Source of the DNA: Escherichia coli
GTDB lineage: Bacteria > Pseudomonadota > Gammaproteobacteria > Enterobacterales > Enterobacteriaceae
DNA length: 64,000 nt
Reading direction: 5' to 3' (one strand)
NCBI RefSeq assembly: GCF_003334355.1
Contig: NZ_QOWP01000006.1
Both the position numbers and the translations under genes were made by a program. Every line of letters begins with the position of its first letter. Position 1 is the stretch's first letter. Below, piece by piece: positions 2,555 to 56,803 of the stretch. The notes under the pieces are model-generated. The model saw nothing but the letters and a program-made list of their open reading frames with translations, had not been told where the DNA came from and did no database searches.

Positions 2555-3415
2555 ATGAGTCAGGCGCTAAAAAATTTACTGACATTGTTAAATCTGGAAA
2601 AAATTGAGGAAGGACTCTTTCGCGGCCAGAGTGAAGATTTAGGTTTACGCCAGGTGTTTGGCGGCCAGGTCGTGGGTCAGGCCTTGTATGCTGCAAAAGA
2701 GACCGTCCCTGAAGAGCGGCTGGTACATTCGTTTCACAGCTACTTTCTTCGCCCTGGCGATAGTAAGAAGCCGATTATTTATGATGTCGAAACGCTGCGT
2801 GACGGTAACAGCTTCAGCGCCCGCCGGGTTGCTGCTATTCAAAACGGCAAACCGATTTTTTATATGACTGCCTCTTTCCAGGCACCAGAAGCGGGTTTCG
2901 AACATCAAAAAACAATGCCGTCCGCGCCAGCGCCTGATGGCCTACCTTCGGAAACGCAAATCGCCCAATCGCTGGCGCACCTGCTGCCGCCAGTGCTGAA
3001 AGATAAATTCATCTGCGATCGTCCGCTGGAAGTCCGTCCGGTGGAGTTTCATAACCCACTGAAAGGTCACGTCGCAGAACCACATCGTCAGGTGTGGATC
3101 CGCGCAAATGGTAGCGTGCCGGATGACCTGCGCGTTCATCAGTATCTGCTCGGTTACGCTTCTGATCTTAACTTCCTGCCGGTAGCTCTACAGCCGCACG
3201 GCATCGGTTTTCTCGAACCGGGGATTCAGATTGCCACCATTGACCATTCCATGTGGTTCCATCGCCCGTTTAATTTGAATGAATGGCTGCTGTATAGCGT
3301 GGAGAGCACCTCGGCGTCCAGCGCACGTGGCTTTGTGCGCGGTGAGTTTTATACCCAAGACGGCGTACTGGTTGCCTCGACCGTTCAGGAAGGGGTGATG
3401 CGTAATCACAATTAA
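2555..3415 (+). CDS. tesB: acyl-CoA thioesterase II
   Basis: ORF track 2537..3415 trimmed to ATG 2555 preceded by GGAGAG; 286 aa, [24 protein letters not shown]... Confidence 0.95.
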
Positions 3416-3454
3416 AAAAATAGCCGGAGGTGAAAACCGTCCGGCTGTTTTTTG
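3414..3454. terminator. bidirectional rho-independent terminator between convergent tesB and amtB
   Basis: AAAAAAA-tAGCCGG-13 nt loop-CCGGCT-GTTTTTTG; A-run and T-run flank the stem. Confidence 0.8.
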
Positions 3455-9333: not shown

Positions 9334-9484
9334 AGCCCTTCCACAGAGAATTTTTTTCTCTTTTAATTCTATTTTAAAGGTGAAATCACGACAATTTATT
9401 CTGTGCGGTTTAAACACCACGGCACAAAATGACAAATTCAACGCAAAAAAACCGGGCAATTGCCCGGTGCTGGAAGGGATCTCA

Positions 9485-12863: not shown

Positions 12864-12877
12864 TTATTCCGGGTGTC

Positions 12878-12902
12878 GCCGGATGCGGCTTGAGCATCCG
12901 GC
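12878..12902. repeat. REP-like palindrome between convergent queC and fadM
   Basis: GCCGGATGC-ggcttga-GCATCCGGC, 9-bp perfect arms. Confidence 0.6.
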
Positions 12903-12914
12903 ACCACAAAACGT

Positions 12915-13313
12915 TTACTTAACCATCTGCTCCAGCTTTTCGCGCAATTCCCCTTCCAGAGCTAATGCTTTCTGCGTTTTAAGATCAATACAAACAAACG
13001 TAATAAGCGCATCCGCTACCACCTGCCCTTCCGGCTCCAGTGTAATGACCTGGCTTAAGATGCCGCTTTTACCGTTTAATTGCTGCAACTGACTGGTAAT
13101 AGTTAACAGGTCACTTAATACCGCTGGGCGACGATAGTTAATATTGATATTGACCACGACGAAGGCGATGTTATGGGCCGTCATCCACTGAAAACTGTCG
13201 CTATTTTCCAACCCATCCCAGCGGGCTTCTTCGAGAAATTCAAGGTAGCGGGCGTTGTTGACGTGCTGGTAAACGTCGAGATGATATCCACGAACTTTGA
13301 TTTGTGTTTGCAT
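12915..13313 (-). CDS. fadM: long-chain acyl-CoA thioesterase III FadM (YbaW)
   Basis: 132 aa, MQTQIKVRGYHLDVYQHVNNARYLEF...; hotdog-fold thioesterase. Confidence 0.93.
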   Translation of the reverse strand: MQTQIKVRGYHLDVYQHVNNARYLEFLEEARWDGLENSDSFQWMTAHNIAFVVVNININYRRPAVLSDLLTITSQLQQLNGKSGILSQVITLEPEGQVVADALITFVCIDLKTQKALALEGELREKLEQMVK

Positions 13314-13354
13314 AGCGCAATAACCTTACGTTGTTGTTATAAGTACAGAGGTCA

Positions 13355-31048: not shown

Positions 31049-32413
31049 ATGAACGATTATAAAATGACGCCAGGTGAGCGGCGCGCGACCTGGGGTTTAG
31101 GAACCGTTTTCTCGTTGCGCATGCTGGGCATGTTTATGGTTCTGCCGGTTCTGACCACGTATGGCATGGCTCTGCAAGGTGCCAGCGAAGCATTAATCGG
31201 TATTGCCATTGGTATTTATGGTCTGACTCAGGCCGTTTTTCAGATTCCGTTTGGCCTGCTTTCCGACCGCATTGGTCGCAAACCATTAATTGTCGGTGGG
31301 CTGGCGGTGTTTGCCGCCGGTAGCGTTATCGCTGCGCTTTCTGACTCCATCTGGGGAATTATTCTGGGCCGGGCGCTACAAGGCTCCGGTGCGATTGCCG
31401 CTGCCGTTATGGCGCTGCTTTCCGATCTCACGCGCGAACAAAACCGTACCAAAGCAATGGCGTTTATCGGCGTGAGCTTTGGCATTACCTTTGCCATTGC
31501 GATGGTGCTTGGCCCGATCATCACTCACAAACTTGGGCTGCACGCGCTGTTCTGGATGATCGCTATTCTGGCAACGACCGGCATTGCGTTGACCATTTGG
31601 GTTGTGCCCAACAGTAGCACTCACGTACTTAATCGTGAGTCCGGAATGGTGAAAGGCAGTTTCAGTAAAGTGCTGGCGGAACCGCGGCTGCTGAAACTCA
31701 ACTTTGGCATTATGTGTCTGCATATTTTGCTGATGTCGACGTTTGTTGCCCTGCCCGGACAACTGGCTGATGCAGGGTTCCCGGCGGCTGAACACTGGAA
31801 GGTCTATCTGGCGACAATGCTAATCGCCTTTGGCTCGGTCGTGCCTTTCATTATCTACGCTGAAGTTAAGCGCAAAATGAAGCAAGTCTTTGTCTTCTGC
31901 GTCGGGTTGATCGTGGTTGCGGAAATTGTGTTGTGGAACGCGCAAACGCAGTTCTGGCAACTGGTGGTCGGCGTGCAGCTTTTCTTTGTGGCGTTTAATT
32001 TGATGGAAGCCCTCCTGCCCTCACTTATCAGTAAAGAGTCGCCAGCAGGTTACAAAGGTACGGCGATGGGTGTTTACTCCACCAGCCAGTTTCTTGGCGT
32101 GGCGATTGGCGGTTCGCTGGGCGGCTGGATTAACGGCATGTTTGACGGTCAGGGGGTATTTCTCGCTGGCGCAATGCTGGCCGCAGTGTGGCTGACAGTC
32201 GCCAGTACCATGAAAGAACCGCCGTATGTCAGCAGTTTGCGCATTGAAATCCCGGCGAACATTGCCGCAAACGAGGCGTTAAAAGTGCGTTTGCTAGAAA
32301 CTGAAGGCATCAAAGAAGTGTTGATTGCAGAAGAAGAACATTCAGCTTATGTGAAAATCGACAGCAAAGTGACGAATCGCTTTGAGATAGAACAGGCAAT
32401 TCGTCAGGCATAA
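31049..32413 (+). CDS. yajR: MFS transporter YajR
   Basis: ORF track 30851..32413 trimmed to ATG 31049 (454 aa, MNDYKMTPGERRATWGLG...); the cyoE terminator at 30916-30943 argues against the longer upstream start. Confidence 0.9.
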   Translation: MNDYKMTPGERRATWGLGTVFSLRMLGMFMVLPVLTTYGMALQGASEALIGIAIGIYGLTQAVFQIPFGLLSDRIGRKPLIVGGLAVFAAGSVIAALSDSIWGIILGRALQGSGAIAAAVMALLSDLTREQNRTKAMAFIGVSFGITFAIAMVLGPIITHKLGLHALFWMIAILATTGIALTIWVVPNSSTHVLNRESGMVKGSFSKVLAEPRLLKLNFGIMCLHILLMSTFVALPGQLADAGFPAAEHWKVYLATMLIAFGSVVPFIIYAEVKRKMKQVFVFCVGLIVVAEIVLWNAQTQFWQLVVGVQLFFVAFNLMEALLPSLISKESPAGYKGTAMGVYSTSQFLGVAIGGSLGGWINGMFDGQGVFLAGAMLAAVWLTVASTMKEPPYVSSLRIEIPANIAANEALKVRLLETEGIKEVLIAEEEHSAYVKIDSKVTNRFEIEQAIRQA

Positions 32414-32435
32414 AAAACGCGGCGAATTGCCTGCT

Positions 32436-47110: not shown

Positions 47111-47182
47111 GAAAAGTTACCTGGATGAAATGTAGGGTTACGCGCAGTTTCCCAAGATGCGGGGATTTTCGCAATCTCCATA

Positions 47183-47217
47183 CATCAAAAAAATCCCGAT
47201 CTTCTGACCGGGATTTT
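47183..47217 (-). terminator. secDF operon rho-independent terminator
   Basis: Minus strand AAAATCCCG-gtcagaagat-CGGGATTTT followed by TTTGATG (7 consecutive U). Confidence 0.65.
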
Positions 47218-50449: not shown

Positions 50450-51592
<1,143 letters not shown>

Positions 51593-51632
51593 TCAGAAAA
51601 ACAGTCCAACGTTTTAAACCAGCGCCGCGGAA

Positions 51633-52703
51633 TTACTCCCCGACGCGCTCATTAATTGCCTGCGGATTGTACGTGATAAACATCGCATCACCGTAACTAA
51701 AAAAGCGATATTTCTCTTCTACCGCTGCTTTATAGGCGTTCATGGTGTGTTGATAACCGGCAAAGGCCGAAACCAGCATAATCAGCGTCGACTCTGGCAA
51801 GTGGAAGTTCGTCACCAGCGCATCGACCACTTTGTACTGGAAGCCCGGATAGATAAAGATTTGGGTATCGTCGAAGAACGGTTCAATGAGATCGTTTTTC
51901 GCTGCCTGAGCCGCGCTTTCCAGCGAACGTACTGAAGTGGTGCCAACCGCAATCACCCGGTTACCGCGCGCTTTCGCCGCCAGTACCGCGTCTACCACAT
52001 CCTGCGGTACTTCAGCGTATTCCGAGTGCATGATGTGATCTTCAATGGTGTCGACGCGCACCGGCTGGAAGGTGCCCGCACCAACGTGCAACGTCACAAA
52101 CGCCATCTCCACGCCTTTGGCGCGCAATTTTTCCAGCAAAGGCTCGTCAAAATGCAGACCTGCGGTCGGGGCTGCAACCGCGCCCGGTTTTTCGCTATAA
52201 ACGGTTTGATAAAGTTCGCGGTCAGCGTCTTCGTCCGGACGGTCGATATACGGCGGCAGCGGCATATGGCCGATGCTGTTGAGAATATCCAGCACCGAGC
52301 GTTCATCATTAAATTCGACTTCAAACAGTGCGCCGTGGCGCGCGGTCATTGTTGCGTTAATACTTTCGTCATCGCCCAGCAGCAGTTCTGCGCCAGGTTT
52401 TGGCGCTTTCGAGGCGCGAATATGCGCAAGAATGCGTTTGTCGTCGAGCATCCGTTCAACCAGCACTTCAATCTTGCCGCCGCTGGCTTTACGCCCAAAC
52501 AGGCGCGCCGGGATCACGCGGGTATTATTAAAAACCAGAAGATCGCCGGGGTTGAGCTTATCAAGTAAATCGGTGAAAGTACCGTGCGTCAGCGCGCCCG
52601 TCGGCCCGTCCAGCGACAGTAAACGACAGCTACTGCGTTCAGGCATGGGATAGTGGGCAATCAGGGATTCGGGCAATTCAAAGGAGAAATCGGTAACGCG
52701 CAT
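51633..52703 (-). CDS. queA: S-adenosylmethionine:tRNA ribosyltransferase-isomerase
   Basis: 356 aa, [29 protein letters not shown]... Confidence 0.98.
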
Positions 52704-52795
52704 GACACTGACTCAGACTAAAATAAGAGGCGGGTAGTCTAGTGCCGGGGCGCTCTCCCTGCAACCTTTACCCCCTTTTGGATAGAATATAATCG

Positions 52796-53377
52796 ATGAA
52801 TTTTTTAGCTCACCTGCATTTAGCCCATCTCGCGGAAAGCTCGCTTTCCGGCAATTTACTGGCTGATTTCGTACGCGGAAATCCTGAAGAAAGTTTTCCG
52901 CCCGACGTCGTGGCTGGCATTCATATGCATCGACGTATCGACGTATTGACTGACAATCTGCCGGAAGTCCGCGAAGCACGGGAGTGGTTTCGTAGTGAAA
53001 CGCGCCGCGTTGCGCCTATTACGCTGGATGTCATGTGGGATCACTTTCTTTCCCGCCACTGGTCGCAGCTGTCGCCGGACTTTCCGCTACAGGAATTTGT
53101 CTGTTATGCCCGCGAGCAAGTGATGACGATTTTGCCGGACTCACCGCCACGTTTTATCAATCTGAACAATTACTTGTGGTCAGAGCAGTGGCTGGTGCGC
53201 TATCGCGATATGGATTTCATCCAGAACGTGTTAAACGGCATGGCAAGCCGCCGCCCACGTCTGGATGCCCTGCGTGACTCCTGGTACGATTTAGACGCTC
53301 ATTATGACGCCCTCGAAACCCGCTTCTGGCAGTTTTATCCGCGGATGATGGCGCAGGCGTCACGCAAGGCGTTATAA
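52796..53377 (+). CDS. acpH: acyl carrier protein phosphodiesterase (YajB)
   Basis: 193 aa, [25 protein letters not shown]... Confidence 0.95.
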
Positions 53378-53381
53378 AACG

Positions 53382-55196
53382 TTAGTTCATCCATACCGTA
53401 GCCGAAATGGCAGGCAAAGCCAGAATCCCGTCAGTCAGTTGCCCATGCCCTTCTTTGCATTGCCATTGCACGGCATTGAGAAACGGTGACGCGGGTAGCA
53501 CCACTTCACAGGCCTCGCCACGGTTGATTGCCACCAGTACACGTTGCTGATTCAGCACGCGGACAAATACCACCACGTTATCTTCCGCATACAGCACCTG
53601 ACAGCCGCCATGACGTAGCGCCTGACTTTTCTTACGCAGCGCAATCATTCGCTGGTACAGCGCGAATAACGCCGTATCCTGCTTTTCCACCTGCCAGGGG
53701 AACGGTTTACGGCAAAACGGATCGTTTTTGCCATCCAGTCCTACTTCATCACCGTAATAAATGCACGGTACACCAGGCCAGGTGAACAGCCAGACCACCG
53801 CCAGCGGCAGGCGCGCAATATCCCGACCGAGCAGCGTTTTAAATCGCGCAGTATCGTGGCTGTCGAGCTGATTAAACATACGTAATTGTTGTTGATGAGA
53901 AAGCCCTGCGCGGTAATTATCCATCCAGGCCATACAGGTTTGGGCATCAATTTGCTGCGGATCGTAAGAGATATCGGTATTGGCAAGAAATCCCCACAAC
54001 GGGAATGTGAAGCCACGATAGTTCATGGCGGCATCTTCCACATCGGCCTGTAACCATTGCCGTGCATCGCCAAAATGTTCGCCGACAATATACGCTTCCG
54101 GCTGGGTTTCTTTCGCCGCTTCGGTGATCCCGGCAACGTGCTGCATATTATTGCGCGCCCCACCCGCCTCCCCCAGCATATGCACCACATCCAGCCGCCA
54201 GCCGTCCATATTCCACGGCGCTTTCAGCCAGTGGCGGACAATACTGTCTTCCCCGCGATAAATTTCATTCACCAGACTTTCCGACTGATAATCCAGCTTC
54301 GGCAAGCTGGCATAGCCAAGCCAGTCGAGCGCCGTGCCATCATCACTAAACGAGTACCAGTCGCGCCAGGGCGATTCGGGGTTGTGACAAGCACCACCCG
54401 TGCCACGATTATGCCTGTCAAACCAGGCATGGGAATCGCCACTGTGGTTAAACACGCCGTCCAGCACCAGCCGCATTCCCAGCTGCTGCGTATTGTGTCG
54501 CAAACGCAGCAACGCCCCATCACCGCCAAACTGCGGATCGACATGGCGATAATCCTCGGTATCGTATTTATGTACGCTGGGAGCTTTAAACACCGGATTG
54601 AGATACAGCGCCGTCACGCCAAGTTTTTTCAGATACGGCAGTTTTTCGCTTATCCCGTCCAGATCGCCGCCATAGAACGTTGATCCGCCCGCCTGCGCCG
54701 TGACCGGTTCATCCCAGTCACGCAATATGATCTCTTGTCCGGCTGCGTGATGGTAATAGACATGATCCTGTTCAGCTTCACGAGGAAGACTACGGGCGAA
54801 ACGATCAGGGAAGATCTGATAAAAAATCTGATCCGCAGCCCATTGTGGGCCGATATCCGGTACATCAACGGCAAACTGCTCCAGTCGTGCCGGCGGCATT
54901 CGGCTGAAGCCCTGCGGTGTAAACCAACGCTGGCGATCGTGCCAAAGCAATTTGAAACTATAACGCCGCCGGGGTTGTCCGCTGGAGAGATCGATCGCCG
55001 CCCGCCATGCGGTGACGCCTGGCTGCGGCTGACTGCGCTGCTTATGCATCGGTACTGACATTTCTTCGTTATCGTGTTCTGTACGCAGCATAATGCGCTG
55101 CGGTGGGTCTTCGCCCGTCAGCCACAGTGTAATGAGCAGTTGATCTTTGCTTTGTTTAACAAATGGGGGCACCGGCAGGTGCCATGCATTTAACAT
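53382..55196 (-). CDS. malZ: maltodextrin glucosidase
   Basis: ORF track 53382..55199, second ATG 55196 gives 604 aa ([15 protein letters not shown]...); GH13 alpha-amylase family. Confidence 0.95.
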
Positions 55197-55354
55197 CATA
55201 ATTCCCCTGTGATGAAAATCTGATCACCTTGCCATAGCCTAATGCAGGATCACTCATCATCTGAAGGATATTTGGGGGAGGAGGACGGGGGCGGATAACT
55301 TTCGGAATAGCCGGATCAGGATTTCCTCCTGAACCGGCTTACAGAACGCAAGGA

Positions 55355-56728
55355 TTACTGGTTTTCAGCCAGCTGACGATCGTGGCGGCGTTTAAACATC
55401 CAGCCAATCAACAGCACAACAATCCACGCGAAACCGACATACAGCGAGATACGCGTATCCGGGTGATAACCAATCAACCCGATAATAAAGAGCAGGAAAA
55501 TCAGCCCGCCGATGGTCGTTGCTACCCCACCCGGCACTTTAAATTTCAGCGCCTTAACTTCTTCTGGCGGCAAACGGCGACGGAAGGCAATTTGCGACAG
55601 CAGGATCATAATCCACACCCACACCGTGGCGAAGGTTGCCAGCGAAGCGATCACCAGGAAGACGTTTTCCGGCATGATGTAGTTCAGATACACCGCAAAC
55701 AGCAGCGCGGTAGTCATCACCAGCACCGTAACCCACGGAATACCGCGACGCGACGTTTTGCTGAAAATTTTCGGCGCGCTGCCCTGCTCTGCCATACCGT
55801 GGAGCATACGGCCTACGCCAAATACATCACTGTTAATTGCCGACAGCGAAGCAGTCAGCACAACAAAGTTAAGAATGCTGGCGGCAAAGGTAATGCCCAT
55901 ATGCTGGAACGTCAGCACGAACGGGCTACCGGCAGTGCCAACCTGATTCCACGGGTAGATAGACATAATGACGAACAGCGTACCGACGTAGAACACCAGA
56001 ATACGCATCGGCACGGAGTTAATCGCACGCGGTATCGATTTCTCAGGATCTTTCGCTTCACCGGCGGTAATCCCGATAATTTCGATCCCACCGTAAGCAA
56101 ACATCACCATTTGCAACGACATTACCATGCCAAGCCAGCCGTTACTGAAGAAGCCGCCGTTGCTCCACAGGTTATGAATACCGGTCGGTTGCCCGCCGTT
56201 GCCAATCCCCCAGATGATGATGCCGAAACCGGCGACAATCATGATGATGATGGTGGCGACTTTAAAGAACGAGAACCAGAATTCCAGCTCACCGAATACC
56301 TTCACGCTCATCAGGTTTACGGCGCAAATGATCAGCACCACGCTCAGTACCCAAATCCAGTGCGGCACCGTCGGGAACCAGACACCCATATAGATACCAA
56401 AAGCGGTCACATCGGCGATGGCGACAATAAGGATTTCAAAGCAGTAGGTCCAGCCGGTAATGTAACCTGCCAGCGGGCCGAGGTTTTCCTGCGCATAACG
56501 CGAGAAAGAGCTGGCGGCCGGGTTATGTACCGACATTTCCCCCAGCGCACGCATAATGATATACGCCGCGATACCACCGATAATATAGGCCAACAACACG
56601 CTCGGACCGGCCATTTTGATGGCGTCTGCCGAACCGTAAAACAGCCCGGTGCCAATTGCTGAACCCAGTGCCATAAAGCGTATGTGGCGGGTACTTAGCC
56701 CACGCTTTAGCTTGTTCTTACTTTCCAT
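55355..56728 (-). CDS. proY: APC-family amino acid permease ProY
   Basis: ORF track 55355..56731, second ATG 56728 gives 457 aa ([32 protein letters not shown]...). Confidence 0.95.
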
Positions 56729-56749
56729 CAATTCCTAACCCATCAACAC

Positions 56750-56784
56750 AATAAAAAACCACGGGGCATCGCAGCCCCGTGGTT
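56750..56784 (-). terminator. brnQ rho-independent terminator
   Basis: Minus strand AACCACGGGG-ctgcgatg-CCCCGTGGTT (10-bp perfect stem) followed by TTTTTATTG. Confidence 0.7.
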
Positions 56785-56803
56785 AAAACAAATGTTCAGT
56801 GAT

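Follow-up and report, generated by a model that had tools for sequence, protein, structure and literature searches.

Overlapping transcription at convergent gene ends of E. coli has been catalogued with ExcludonFinder (Sanmartin et al., NAR 2025, PMC12288877). Its Table 1 contains 165 convergent excludons of MG1655, defined by transcription units that overlap in at least 50% of 58 MG1655 RNA-seq samples, and malZ-acpH is among them. The pair shares the short intergenic distance typical of that list. However, TransTermHP predicted overlapping terminators in 146 of the 165 pairs, while we found no terminator-like hairpin at malZ-acpH. A functional excludon combines reciprocal expression with RNase III processing, whereas the listing of malZ-acpH reports overlap, with no locus-specific analysis. 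For genes separated by 4 bp, passing a 50% coverage threshold is nearly automatic, so the listing says little about the length of the overlap. Other E. coli pairs are built in the same way: mscL-arfA, zapC-ycbX, yccX-tusE and others converge with gaps of 4 bp or less or with overlaps of 4-38 bp, and their transcripts, like those of acpH and malZ, must end inside the partner gene. The mscL-arfA pair has a shared 3' hairpin with a documented role in arfA mRNA processing, and an arfA-derived sRNA is annotated there in K-12; at acpH-malZ, in contrast, nothing of the kind is known, and none was seen. A third related class is that of the Rho-dependent 3' ends described by Dar & Sorek 2018 (PMC6061677), which lie downstream of stable stem-loops devoid of a U tract, with rut sites just beyond.

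The acpH-malZ junction was analysed in a window of 64,000 nucleotides of E. coli DNA. The relevant features are the following.

52704..52795, no strand assigned: acpH-queA divergent intergenic region, the promoter side of acpH.
52796..53377, + strand: acpH, ACP phosphodiesterase, 193 aa; stop TAA at 53375-53377.
53378..53381, no strand assigned: spacer between the two stops, AACG, 4 bp.
53382..55199, - strand: malZ, maltodextrin glucosidase, 605-aa ORF; stop TAA at 53384-53382.
55275..55284, + strand: exact MalT-box consensus, GGGGAGGAGG, upstream of malZ.

The two genes adjoin tail to tail on opposite strands and are thus convergent, the malZ stop appearing as tta at 53382-53384 on the + strand. 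Their coding sequences have no nucleotide in common. The preliminary description had placed both stops at these positions, 4 bp apart, and its coordinates are exact. The gap is also 4 bp in K-12, where this is the reference arrangement. Gene identity is secure: the NCBIfam equivalogs NF007466 and NF008051 are matched by AcpH with 432 bits (cut-off 331) and by MalZ with 1132 bits (cut-off 568), respectively, and the RefSeq annotation of identical E. coli DNA makes the same calls. An annotation artefact, with a wrong stop or frame, was rejected because each protein aligns with its equivalog model over the full length and the C-termini agree to within 1 residue across genera. The malZ ORF has 605 aa in the window and 604 aa in the K-12 annotation. 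Small indels separate the window from E. coli C upstream of about position 47200 (offsets +14, +13 and +1); junction gaps and hairpin coordinates were re-checked and still hold. Expression of malZ depends on MalT. The box GGGGAGGAGG is the sole exact match to the MalT-box consensus in the window and is consistent with membership of malZ in the maltose regulon.

The earlier claim that the junction leaves no room for terminators is borne out. Scans by pattern, by inverted repeats and by hairpin-plus-T gave no terminator in the roughly 400 nt that follow each stop. The best single hairpins lying within 60 nt of the junction reach -12.9 kcal/mol on the + strand and -9.6 kcal/mol on the - strand, with interrupted stems, compared with strong hairpins of -16 to -25 kcal/mol at all eight other convergent junctions of the window. 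The hairpin and terminator scans likewise gave no stable stem-loop between or across the two gene ends that could act as a bidirectional terminator. A weak hairpin over the acpH stop (53341-53382, about -11 to -13 kcal/mol) was discarded as a terminator for want of a U tract, and a search of Rfam over 51500-56800 at E <= 1 for a known RNA family gave just a chance snoRNA match. On the - strand, no intrinsic terminator was found from the malZ stop to queA. Since 4 bp separate the stops and no hairpin is present, RNA polymerase coming from either gene must enter the 3' coding region of the partner, so the earlier structural argument that each transcript extends into the other gene was right and some overlap of the transcripts is unavoidable.

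Such an arrangement is ordinary and no rarer than one would expect. A K-12 sample of 150 kb, taken as three arbitrary slices of 50 kb, contains 18 convergent pairs; 7 of the 18 had a gap of at most 4 bp or overlapped, and six of these seven are also in the excludon list of PMC12288877. How commonplace these junctions are in E. coli had escaped the preliminary description.

Comparison with related genomes suggests how the junction arose. Outside Escherichia, the gene following acpH is usually that for peroxiredoxin C (NF011576, 473 bits); it comes next after acpH, on the same strand, in 63 of 76 non-Escherichia Enterobacteriaceae loci and in none of four Escherichia loci. In Salmonella a terminator, AAAGGCTCGCGATAGCGAGCCTTTTTT, sits between the peroxiredoxin C gene and malZ, and two further loci, from two other genera (L029 and L040), have similar hairpins before malZ. 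Flanking genes and their orientation are unchanged in Salmonella enterica subsp. arizonae (L009), and the C-termini coincide to within 1 residue, but the stops are 883 bp apart, with the extra gene and a hairpin-plus-T terminator in between, where Escherichia has 4 bp and no terminator. Across Escherichia loci L002-L005 the spacer length is fixed at 4 while its sequence is AACG, GGCT or GGTA. The 4-bp junction is thus most likely a derived state, found in Escherichia only, that arose by loss of the peroxiredoxin gene; the choice of loss over gain follows from parsimony applied without an explicit tree. We hypothesize that, in an ancestor of Escherichia, the DNA carrying the peroxiredoxin gene and its terminator was deleted right up to both stops, which would have left four unconstrained bases. 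Tight junctions at acpH in other lineages are independent recurrences: acpH and malZ overlap by 4 bp in Siccibacter turicensis, the gap at the acpH junction is 10 bp in Pseudenterobacter, and a different convergent gene lies 0-3 bp from acpH in Phytobacter and Kosakonia.

Within E. coli the spacer is itself polymorphic. Split matches and the O157 loci L084 and L085 reveal a segment of 1.65 kb inserted in the 4-bp spacer in about 1092 of 5425 genomes (~20%). The 481-aa protein of the O157-type insert had no match in NCBIfam, PADLOC or Pfam, and the 30 named members of its 254-member cluster are all called 'hypothetical' or 'uncharacterized'.

Further information about the fate of the two transcripts was obtained from the RNA that each would carry beyond its stop.

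53378..53637, + strand: acpH 3' extension, antisense to the malZ 3' end; untranslated, C-rich, G-poor and weakly structured; candidate rut-like zone.
53267..53370, - strand: stem-loop 1 of the malZ extension, antisense within the acpH CDS, with a 12-bp stem; candidate 3'-protective structure.
53220..53267, - strand: hairpin 2 of the malZ extension, arms UCCAGACGUG / CACGUUCUGGA, with no U tract after it.

The acpH extension has a C/G ratio of 1.50 at 53378-53455 and of 2.0 at 53534-53637, and the RNA of 53340-53540 on the + strand folds less stably than its shuffles (z = +1.5). Being C-rich, G-poor and weakly structured, it is a candidate zone for Rho loading. The malZ extension is of another kind. 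Its C/G ratio starts at about 0.7-1.0, over 130 nt, a composition poorly suited to a rut site. Stem-loop 1, with arms 53359-53370 and 53267-53278, begins 11 nt past the malZ stop, and the - strand RNA from 53420 to 53220 has a predicted folding energy of -78 kcal/mol (z = -2.9, with 2/200 shuffles folding as well), against z = -1.15 for the + strand of the same DNA. Past hairpin 2 comes a stretch in which C exceeds G (53251-53174, C/G 1.47). The acpH extension therefore has the RNA features expected downstream of the stop at a Rho terminator (untranslated, C-rich, G-poor, weakly structured) and the malZ extension has them in part.

We think it likely that the acpH-malZ junction came about by ordinary compaction of a convergent pair in one lineage and is not a dedicated regulatory device, with Rho as the most probable agent ending both transcripts. 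Devoid of intrinsic terminators, both transcripts would run into the 3' coding region of the partner. As the RNA is untranslated once the ribosome leaves at the stop codon, termination by Rho is the most likely outcome. Rho should end the acpH extension, which is C-rich, G-poor and unstructured from its first nucleotide, in the first few hundred nucleotides. The malZ extension would fold two stable stem-loops in antisense acpH before reaching its stretch of C over G. It resembles in this respect the ends of Dar & Sorek 2018 (PMC6061677), with no U-tract terminator, stable stem-loops and then a C-over-G stretch, and acpH shares with that class the C-rich, unstructured RNA past the stop. In contrast to those ends, Rho dependence of acpH and malZ is a prediction from RNA composition and modelled structure, and on these grounds the most likely one. 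Neither the text of the Adams 2021 Term-seq supplement nor the SMRT-Cappable-seq supplements have an entry for malZ or acpH, and a literature text search combining malZ, Rho-dependent and bicyclomycin gave no match. The resulting 3' overlap would be the reason why RNA-seq surveys flag acpH-malZ as a convergent excludon.

The preliminary description had gone further and suggested mutual antisense or convergent-transcription interference linking a gene of the maltose regulon with one for ACP turnover. In its strongest form, acpH-malZ would be a functional convergent excludon in which MalT-induced malZ antisense RNA lowers acpH and acpH does likewise to malZ, by polymerase collision or by RNase III cleavage of the 3' duplex, thereby coupling maltodextrin use to turnover of the ACP prosthetic group. 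The overlapping units in at least half of the 58 RNA-seq samples of PMC12288877 and the missing terminator fit this proposal, as does the malZ extension, which has little rut character at its start and could therefore span a large part of acpH (582 nt). However, among the listed entries of the p19 duplex study (PMC7373196), the one that comes next after proY lies between acpH and queA, so that no abundant duplex is listed over malZ or acpH; per-gene p19 dsRNA reads for acpH and malZ are ordinary compared with neighbouring genes, in a table whose strand column looks shifted. According to the ExcludonFinder authors (PMC12288877), p19 captures few 3'-UTR duplexes. Sense and antisense counts of Huang 2020 Table S1c were dropped as a measure of read-through direction, since the strands of yajB and queA disagree with Table S1b and look shifted by one row. 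Conservation also speaks against the proposal: the arrangement is found in Escherichia only, the insert breaks it in about 20% of E. coli genomes, and the overlap is under no extra sequence constraint. Synonymous sites at the malZ 3' end were not more conserved than in the rest of the gene, and were less conserved in two of three comparable genomes, so additional purifying selection on the overlap zone was set aside. AcpH and MalZ have, moreover, no known functional link as enzymes, and convergent genes abut so often that being adjacent is by itself hardly informative. Mutual control would be unlikely if both genes were expressed at a low level, but the per-gene RNA-seq table that points to low levels is unreliable here. 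Hence the p19 lists, conservation and the insert lend the interference claim no support; we infer no regulatory effect between acpH and malZ and regard a functional excludon as quite unlikely.

Converging RNA polymerases could also halt one another at the junction and so be released. This collision-driven bidirectional termination is a model proposed for overlapping bidirectional terminators between convergent genes, of which E. coli would have hundreds (bioRxiv 10.1101/2022.10.23.513370), and would suit convergent genes such as acpH and malZ that have no intrinsic terminator. The same study reports, however, that collisions at defined positions require a nascent-RNA stem-loop between the genes and that release needs trailing polymerases. 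The hairpin scan found no such stem-loop at acpH-malZ, and if transcription of the two genes is weak, as suggested by the table with the seemingly shifted strand column and uncertain values, polymerases would seldom meet head-on. We consider collision very unlikely to end these transcripts. The Escherichia-specific stem-loops on the - strand of acpH (53220-53370) could be a selected replacement 3' element that evolved after the deletion and defines and protects the malZ mRNA 3' end while the DNA still encodes the AcpH C-terminus. The strand bias in folding points that way, together with a structure of the type of the Rho-dependent 3' ends of PMC6061677. The 12-bp stem can pair 12/12 in six of seven Escherichia sequences and is absent in 76 other genera (mean 6.6/12, equal to slid controls), and four transitions retain - strand pairing through G-U pairs. 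The clade that has the tight junction is also the one that has the stem, which could be a selected element and not a chance one. Yet the Escherichia sequences are 89-100% identical, so conservation of the stem is expected anyway. In locus L003 it pairs 9/12, with two transitions that favour pairing on the sense strand and a transversion that disrupts a pair. No compensatory double change occurs among the sequences compared, we estimate a chance expectation of about 0.1-0.15 for a 12-nt inverted repeat within 200 nt, and the stem is unchanged in O157, where malZ no longer adjoins acpH. Selection for such an element is, on balance, unlikely.

One objection to Rho termination concerns malZ. Given the poor early rut character of its extension, transcription may fail to terminate and continue across the whole of acpH to queA, and since nothing terminator-like lies on the - strand between the malZ stop and queA, read-through into queA-tgt-yajC-secDF might occur. 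Any such route passes along the - strand of 52704..52795. It is tempting to extend this to a circuit in which maltose-induced malZ transcription reads antisense through acpH into queA-tgt-yajC-secDF, so that MalT lowers acpH and boosts transcription of the queuosine and Sec genes, with the stem-loops tunable, but we hold this to be very improbable. If true, it would be Escherichia-specific wiring, with the stem-loops at 53220-53370 as a tunable 3' element.

In summary, the acpH-malZ feature is real, already known and of little importance: it is the arrangement of the K-12 reference, it belongs to a very common class of junction, and the pair stands in a published excludon catalogue. To this our analysis adds that the junction is a derived state of Escherichia only, most likely reached by loss of the peroxiredoxin gene, after which Salmonella has its terminator; that within E. 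coli the 4-bp spacer is an active site of insertion; and that the 3' extensions of acpH and malZ differ in their predicted fate. Were cross-talk between the two genes shown, it would provide one further example of transcriptional interference and not a new principle.

The convergent ends of acpH and malZ lie exactly as the preliminary description had placed them, with stops on opposite strands and 4 bp apart. The window reads GCG TTA TAA aacg TTA GTT CAT at 53369-53390, and both the ORFs and the K-12 annotation agree.

52796-53377, + strand, acpH ORF, 193 aa, TAA stop at 53375-53377
53378-53381, spacer AACG, the 4 bases between both stops
53382-55199, - strand, malZ ORF, 605 aa, TAA stop (tta on the + strand) at 53382-53384

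The + strand product is the ACP phosphodiesterase AcpH (NCBIfam equivalog NF007466, 432 bits against a cut-off of 331) and the - strand product is the maltodextrin glucosidase MalZ (NCBIfam equivalog NF008051, 1132 bits against 568). The sole exact MalT-box consensus in the window, at 55275-55284, is upstream of malZ. Several E. coli chromosomes match segment 52700-55300 at 100% identity, and 5425 of 5426 complete genomes contain it. K-12 MG1655 has an equal 4-bp gap (malZ 422518-424332, +; acpH 424337-424918, -), in the reverse orientation to the window.

The junction was also said to leave no room for terminators, and three empty searches bear this out, as do eight control junctions that carry hairpins. 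A consensus scan gave no terminator-like site close to the junction, and a short-range inverted-repeat search around it returned just one 8-nt pair, within acpH. A scan for hairpins of -8 kcal/mol or better followed by four or more T within 9 nt, covering ~400 nt past each stop, found only weak, interrupted structures in the acpH direction and none in the malZ direction. The controls were the other eight convergent CDS pairs in the window (gaps 30-176 bp), all with a strong single spacer hairpin of -16 to -25 kcal/mol on both strands; up to 60 nt from where acpH and malZ meet, the best hairpins reach -12.9 (+) and -9.6 (-) kcal/mol.

646-685, 1726-1762, 3415-3453, 12873-12907, 32392-32434, 34666-34715, 40559-40600 and 46585-46625, both strands, control-junction hairpins

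A/T runs flank only some of these hairpins, for example at tesB/amtB (AAAAAATAGCCGG...CCGGCTGTTTTTT). Their positions come directly from the window sequence, and they fall within true spacers despite the offsets of the E. coli C annotation (+14, +13 or +1 nt upstream of ~47200). Small indels between the window and E. coli C across ~1-47200 produce these offsets, which change near 9400-9450, near 13300-13350 (12 nt, fadM-ybaV spacer) and near 47150-47200 (yajD-secF spacer). In the annotation of E. coli C, ybaE is a pseudogene with an internal stop.

The deduction that the two transcripts must extend into each other is right, and the overlap has already been published. malZ-acpH is one of 165 convergent excludons (gene pairs with overlapping transcription units) of MG1655 in Table 1 of the ExcludonFinder paper (Sanmartin et al., NAR 2025, PMC12288877), the sole match in a full-text literature search for both gene names together. 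An excludon is defined there by RNA-seq-defined transcription units overlapping in half or more of 58 samples. Since transcript ends are placed where coverage drops below 50% of the gene mean (PMC12288877), genes only 4 bp apart are flagged almost inevitably; inclusion in the table confirms that overlap occurs and says little on its length or effect. Nor is the junction unusual. Of 18 convergent CDS pairs in three arbitrarily chosen 50-kb stretches of the annotated K-12 genome, 7 overlap or are at most 4 bp apart, which makes acpH-malZ a typical representative of a large class; six of the seven are also present in the excludon table (PMC12288877).

Tight convergent CDS pairs in the K-12 sample
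zapC-ycbX, overlap 4 bp
sxy-yccS, overlap 38 bp
yccX-tusE, overlap 4 bp
yohO-yehW, overlap 20 bp
yhdU-envR, gap 2 bp
yrdA-yrdB, overlap 25 bp
mscL-arfA, overlap 4 bp

Mutual antisense or interference between malZ and acpH, proposed in the preliminary description, is unsupported by either p19 dsRNA data or sequence constraint. Consecutive duplexes in the p19 study (Huang et al. 2020, PMC7373196) go from proY (420,791-420,814) to 424,171-424,202 in older K-12 coordinates, with no abundant duplex within malZ or acpH among those listed. Reads per gene were 16-72 RPM for malZ and 20-63 RPM for yajB/acpH, similar to brnQ and proY, and 250-1160 RPM for queA (PMC7373196). As evidence against dsRNA at the junction this is weak, because p19 captures few 3' duplexes, a caution given by the ExcludonFinder authors (PMC12288877). 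Third-codon-position identity between the window and other Escherichia was 0.58 in the last 50 malZ codons vs 0.86 in the rest for locus L002, 0.58 vs 0.74 for L003 and 0.82 vs 0.74 for L005, and in acpH the last 50 codons exceed the others in conservation by just a small margin. Nothing points to constraint on the overlap.

At the other end of acpH, window 52736-52764, in the divergent acpH-queA intergenic region, exactly matches two p19 duplexes at 424,171-424,202 (gtctagtgccggggcgctctccctgcaa), and queA dsRNA reads are 10-fold above those of its neighbours (PMC7373196). Thus, acpH and queA probably overlap at their 5' ends; the pair is missing from the divergent excludon list (PMC12288877). 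Table S1c of Huang et al. 2020 (PMC7373196) gives yajB as '+' and queA as '-' in rows b0404-b0405, the opposite of Table S1b and the genome. Its strand column looks shifted by one row, and sense and antisense values may be misassigned. Because this column contradicts Table S1b, the sense/antisense totals of Table S1c are unusable.

In E. coli, untranslated RNA that lacks a terminator hairpin is a substrate for Rho. Past both stops the RNA is untranslated and has no terminator hairpin, and Rho most likely ends it. The acpH extension is C-rich and G-poor from its start (C/G 1.50 at 53378-53455 and 2.0 at 53534-53637) and folds worse than shuffled sequence (z = +1.5); it would be ended by Rho within a few hundred nucleotides. 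The malZ extension has a C/G of 0.7-1.0 across its first ~130 nt, and from 53420 to 53220 on the - strand it folds to -78 kcal/mol (z = -2.9, 2 of 200 shuffles as good), against z = -1.15 for the + strand of the same DNA.

53359-53370 paired with 53267-53278, - strand, 12-bp stem of the malZ extension, beginning 11 nt after the malZ stop
53267-53220, - strand, second hairpin of the malZ extension

No U tract comes after either stem-loop; next is a stretch with C>G (53251-53174). This anatomy matches the Rho-dependent 3' ends described by Dar & Sorek (PMC6061677), stable stem-loops without U tracts and with rut sites just downstream. If Rho failed, malZ read-through would join the queA-tgt-yajC-secDF transcript, since the terminator scan found nothing terminator-like on the malZ strand up to queA.

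A selected role for the 12-bp stem is a minority possibility. All 12 pairs can form on the - strand in six of seven Escherichia sequences, and the same positions in 76 other genera average 6.6 of 12, equal to slid controls, so that the stem is specific to the tight-junction clade. However, the Escherichia sequences compared are close relatives, with no compensatory double change in the stem, and its substitutions are divided (four favour the - strand, two the + strand and one is against both). Alternatively, converging polymerases could end both transcripts by collision at the junction. That model requires a stem-loop element between the genes, together with trailing polymerases that release the collided complexes (bioRxiv 10.1101/2022.10.23.513370), but the acpH/malZ junction has no such stem-loop. 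Weak expression of both genes, suggested by an RNA-seq table on which we do not rely, would also argue against collision.

Within E. coli, a 161-nt junction query matches as one piece in 4295 of 5425 genomes and is split into two places in ~1092. O157 strain AR-0427 and strain 24A16CRGN010 carry a 1.65-kb segment exactly in the spacer.

L084 6079-7731, 1.65-kb insert in O157 AR-0427
L085 4079-5729, 1.65-kb insert in the second locus; both insertion points correspond to window 53378-53381

The insert holds one hypothetical gene on the malZ strand, encoding a 481-aa protein rich in lysine, glutamate and asparagine (WP_000155946.1), and a hairpin (CAGCCCTGACA...TGTCAGGGCTG) between this gene and the malZ stop. 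The protein has no match in Pfam, NCBIfam or PADLOC, and all names read in its 254-member cluster are 'hypothetical' or 'uncharacterized'. Given an insert exactly in the spacer in ~1092 genomes, the spacer is the one harmless insertion point, in use. A divergent strain (93.7% identity) retains the 4-bp gap.

Across the Enterobacteriaceae, we located both stops in 80 loci of an AcpH scan with one genome per species. AcpH has 193 aa in every locus, and the MalZ end is constant to within one residue. The gap is exactly 4 bp in all four Escherichia loci (E. coli, E. albertii and two Escherichia sp.), with differing spacers (AACG, GGCT, GGTA). A 200-aa peroxiredoxin C gene (NF011576, 473 bits) lies 3' of acpH on the same strand in 63 of the 76 other loci, often followed by variable cassettes that leave malZ more than 4 kb off; within the family, the interval from acpH to malZ is variable. 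At least three alternative cassette types precede malZ in these loci.

Cassettes before malZ
membrane protein pair, 450-700 aa and 515-870 aa
three-gene set, 622/181/213 aa
PTS-like set, 148/95/463 aa

Tight acpH 3' junctions outside Escherichia arose independently: acpH overlaps malZ by 4 nt in Siccibacter, the gap is 10 bp in Pseudenterobacter, and a different convergent gene lies 0-3 bp from the acpH 3' end in Phytobacter and Kosakonia. The 38-bp spacer of Leclercia UBA7405 is a GC hairpin. The 358-bp acpH-malZ spacer of a Superficieibacter sp. (L061 4583-4940) consists of three tandem copies of a ~110-bp unit, each with REP-like GC-rich palindromes (GCCCGGTGGCGCTGCGCTTACCGGGCCTACG...).

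Salmonella enterica subsp. arizonae (L009 4583-5465) has acpH, 210 bp, the peroxiredoxin gene and malZ, with a canonical terminator (AAAGGCTCGCGATAGCGAGCCTTTTTT) between the last two; equivalent GC hairpins with T runs are found in two further loci (L029 and L040). In the established taxonomy, the nearest relatives of Escherichia are Salmonella and Citrobacter. As both carry the peroxiredoxin gene, parsimony suggests that the Escherichia ancestor lost it, along with the spacer on either side and the terminator. The acpH-malZ junction is ordinary and already catalogued, and most likely a by-product of this gene loss in the lineage of Escherichia.
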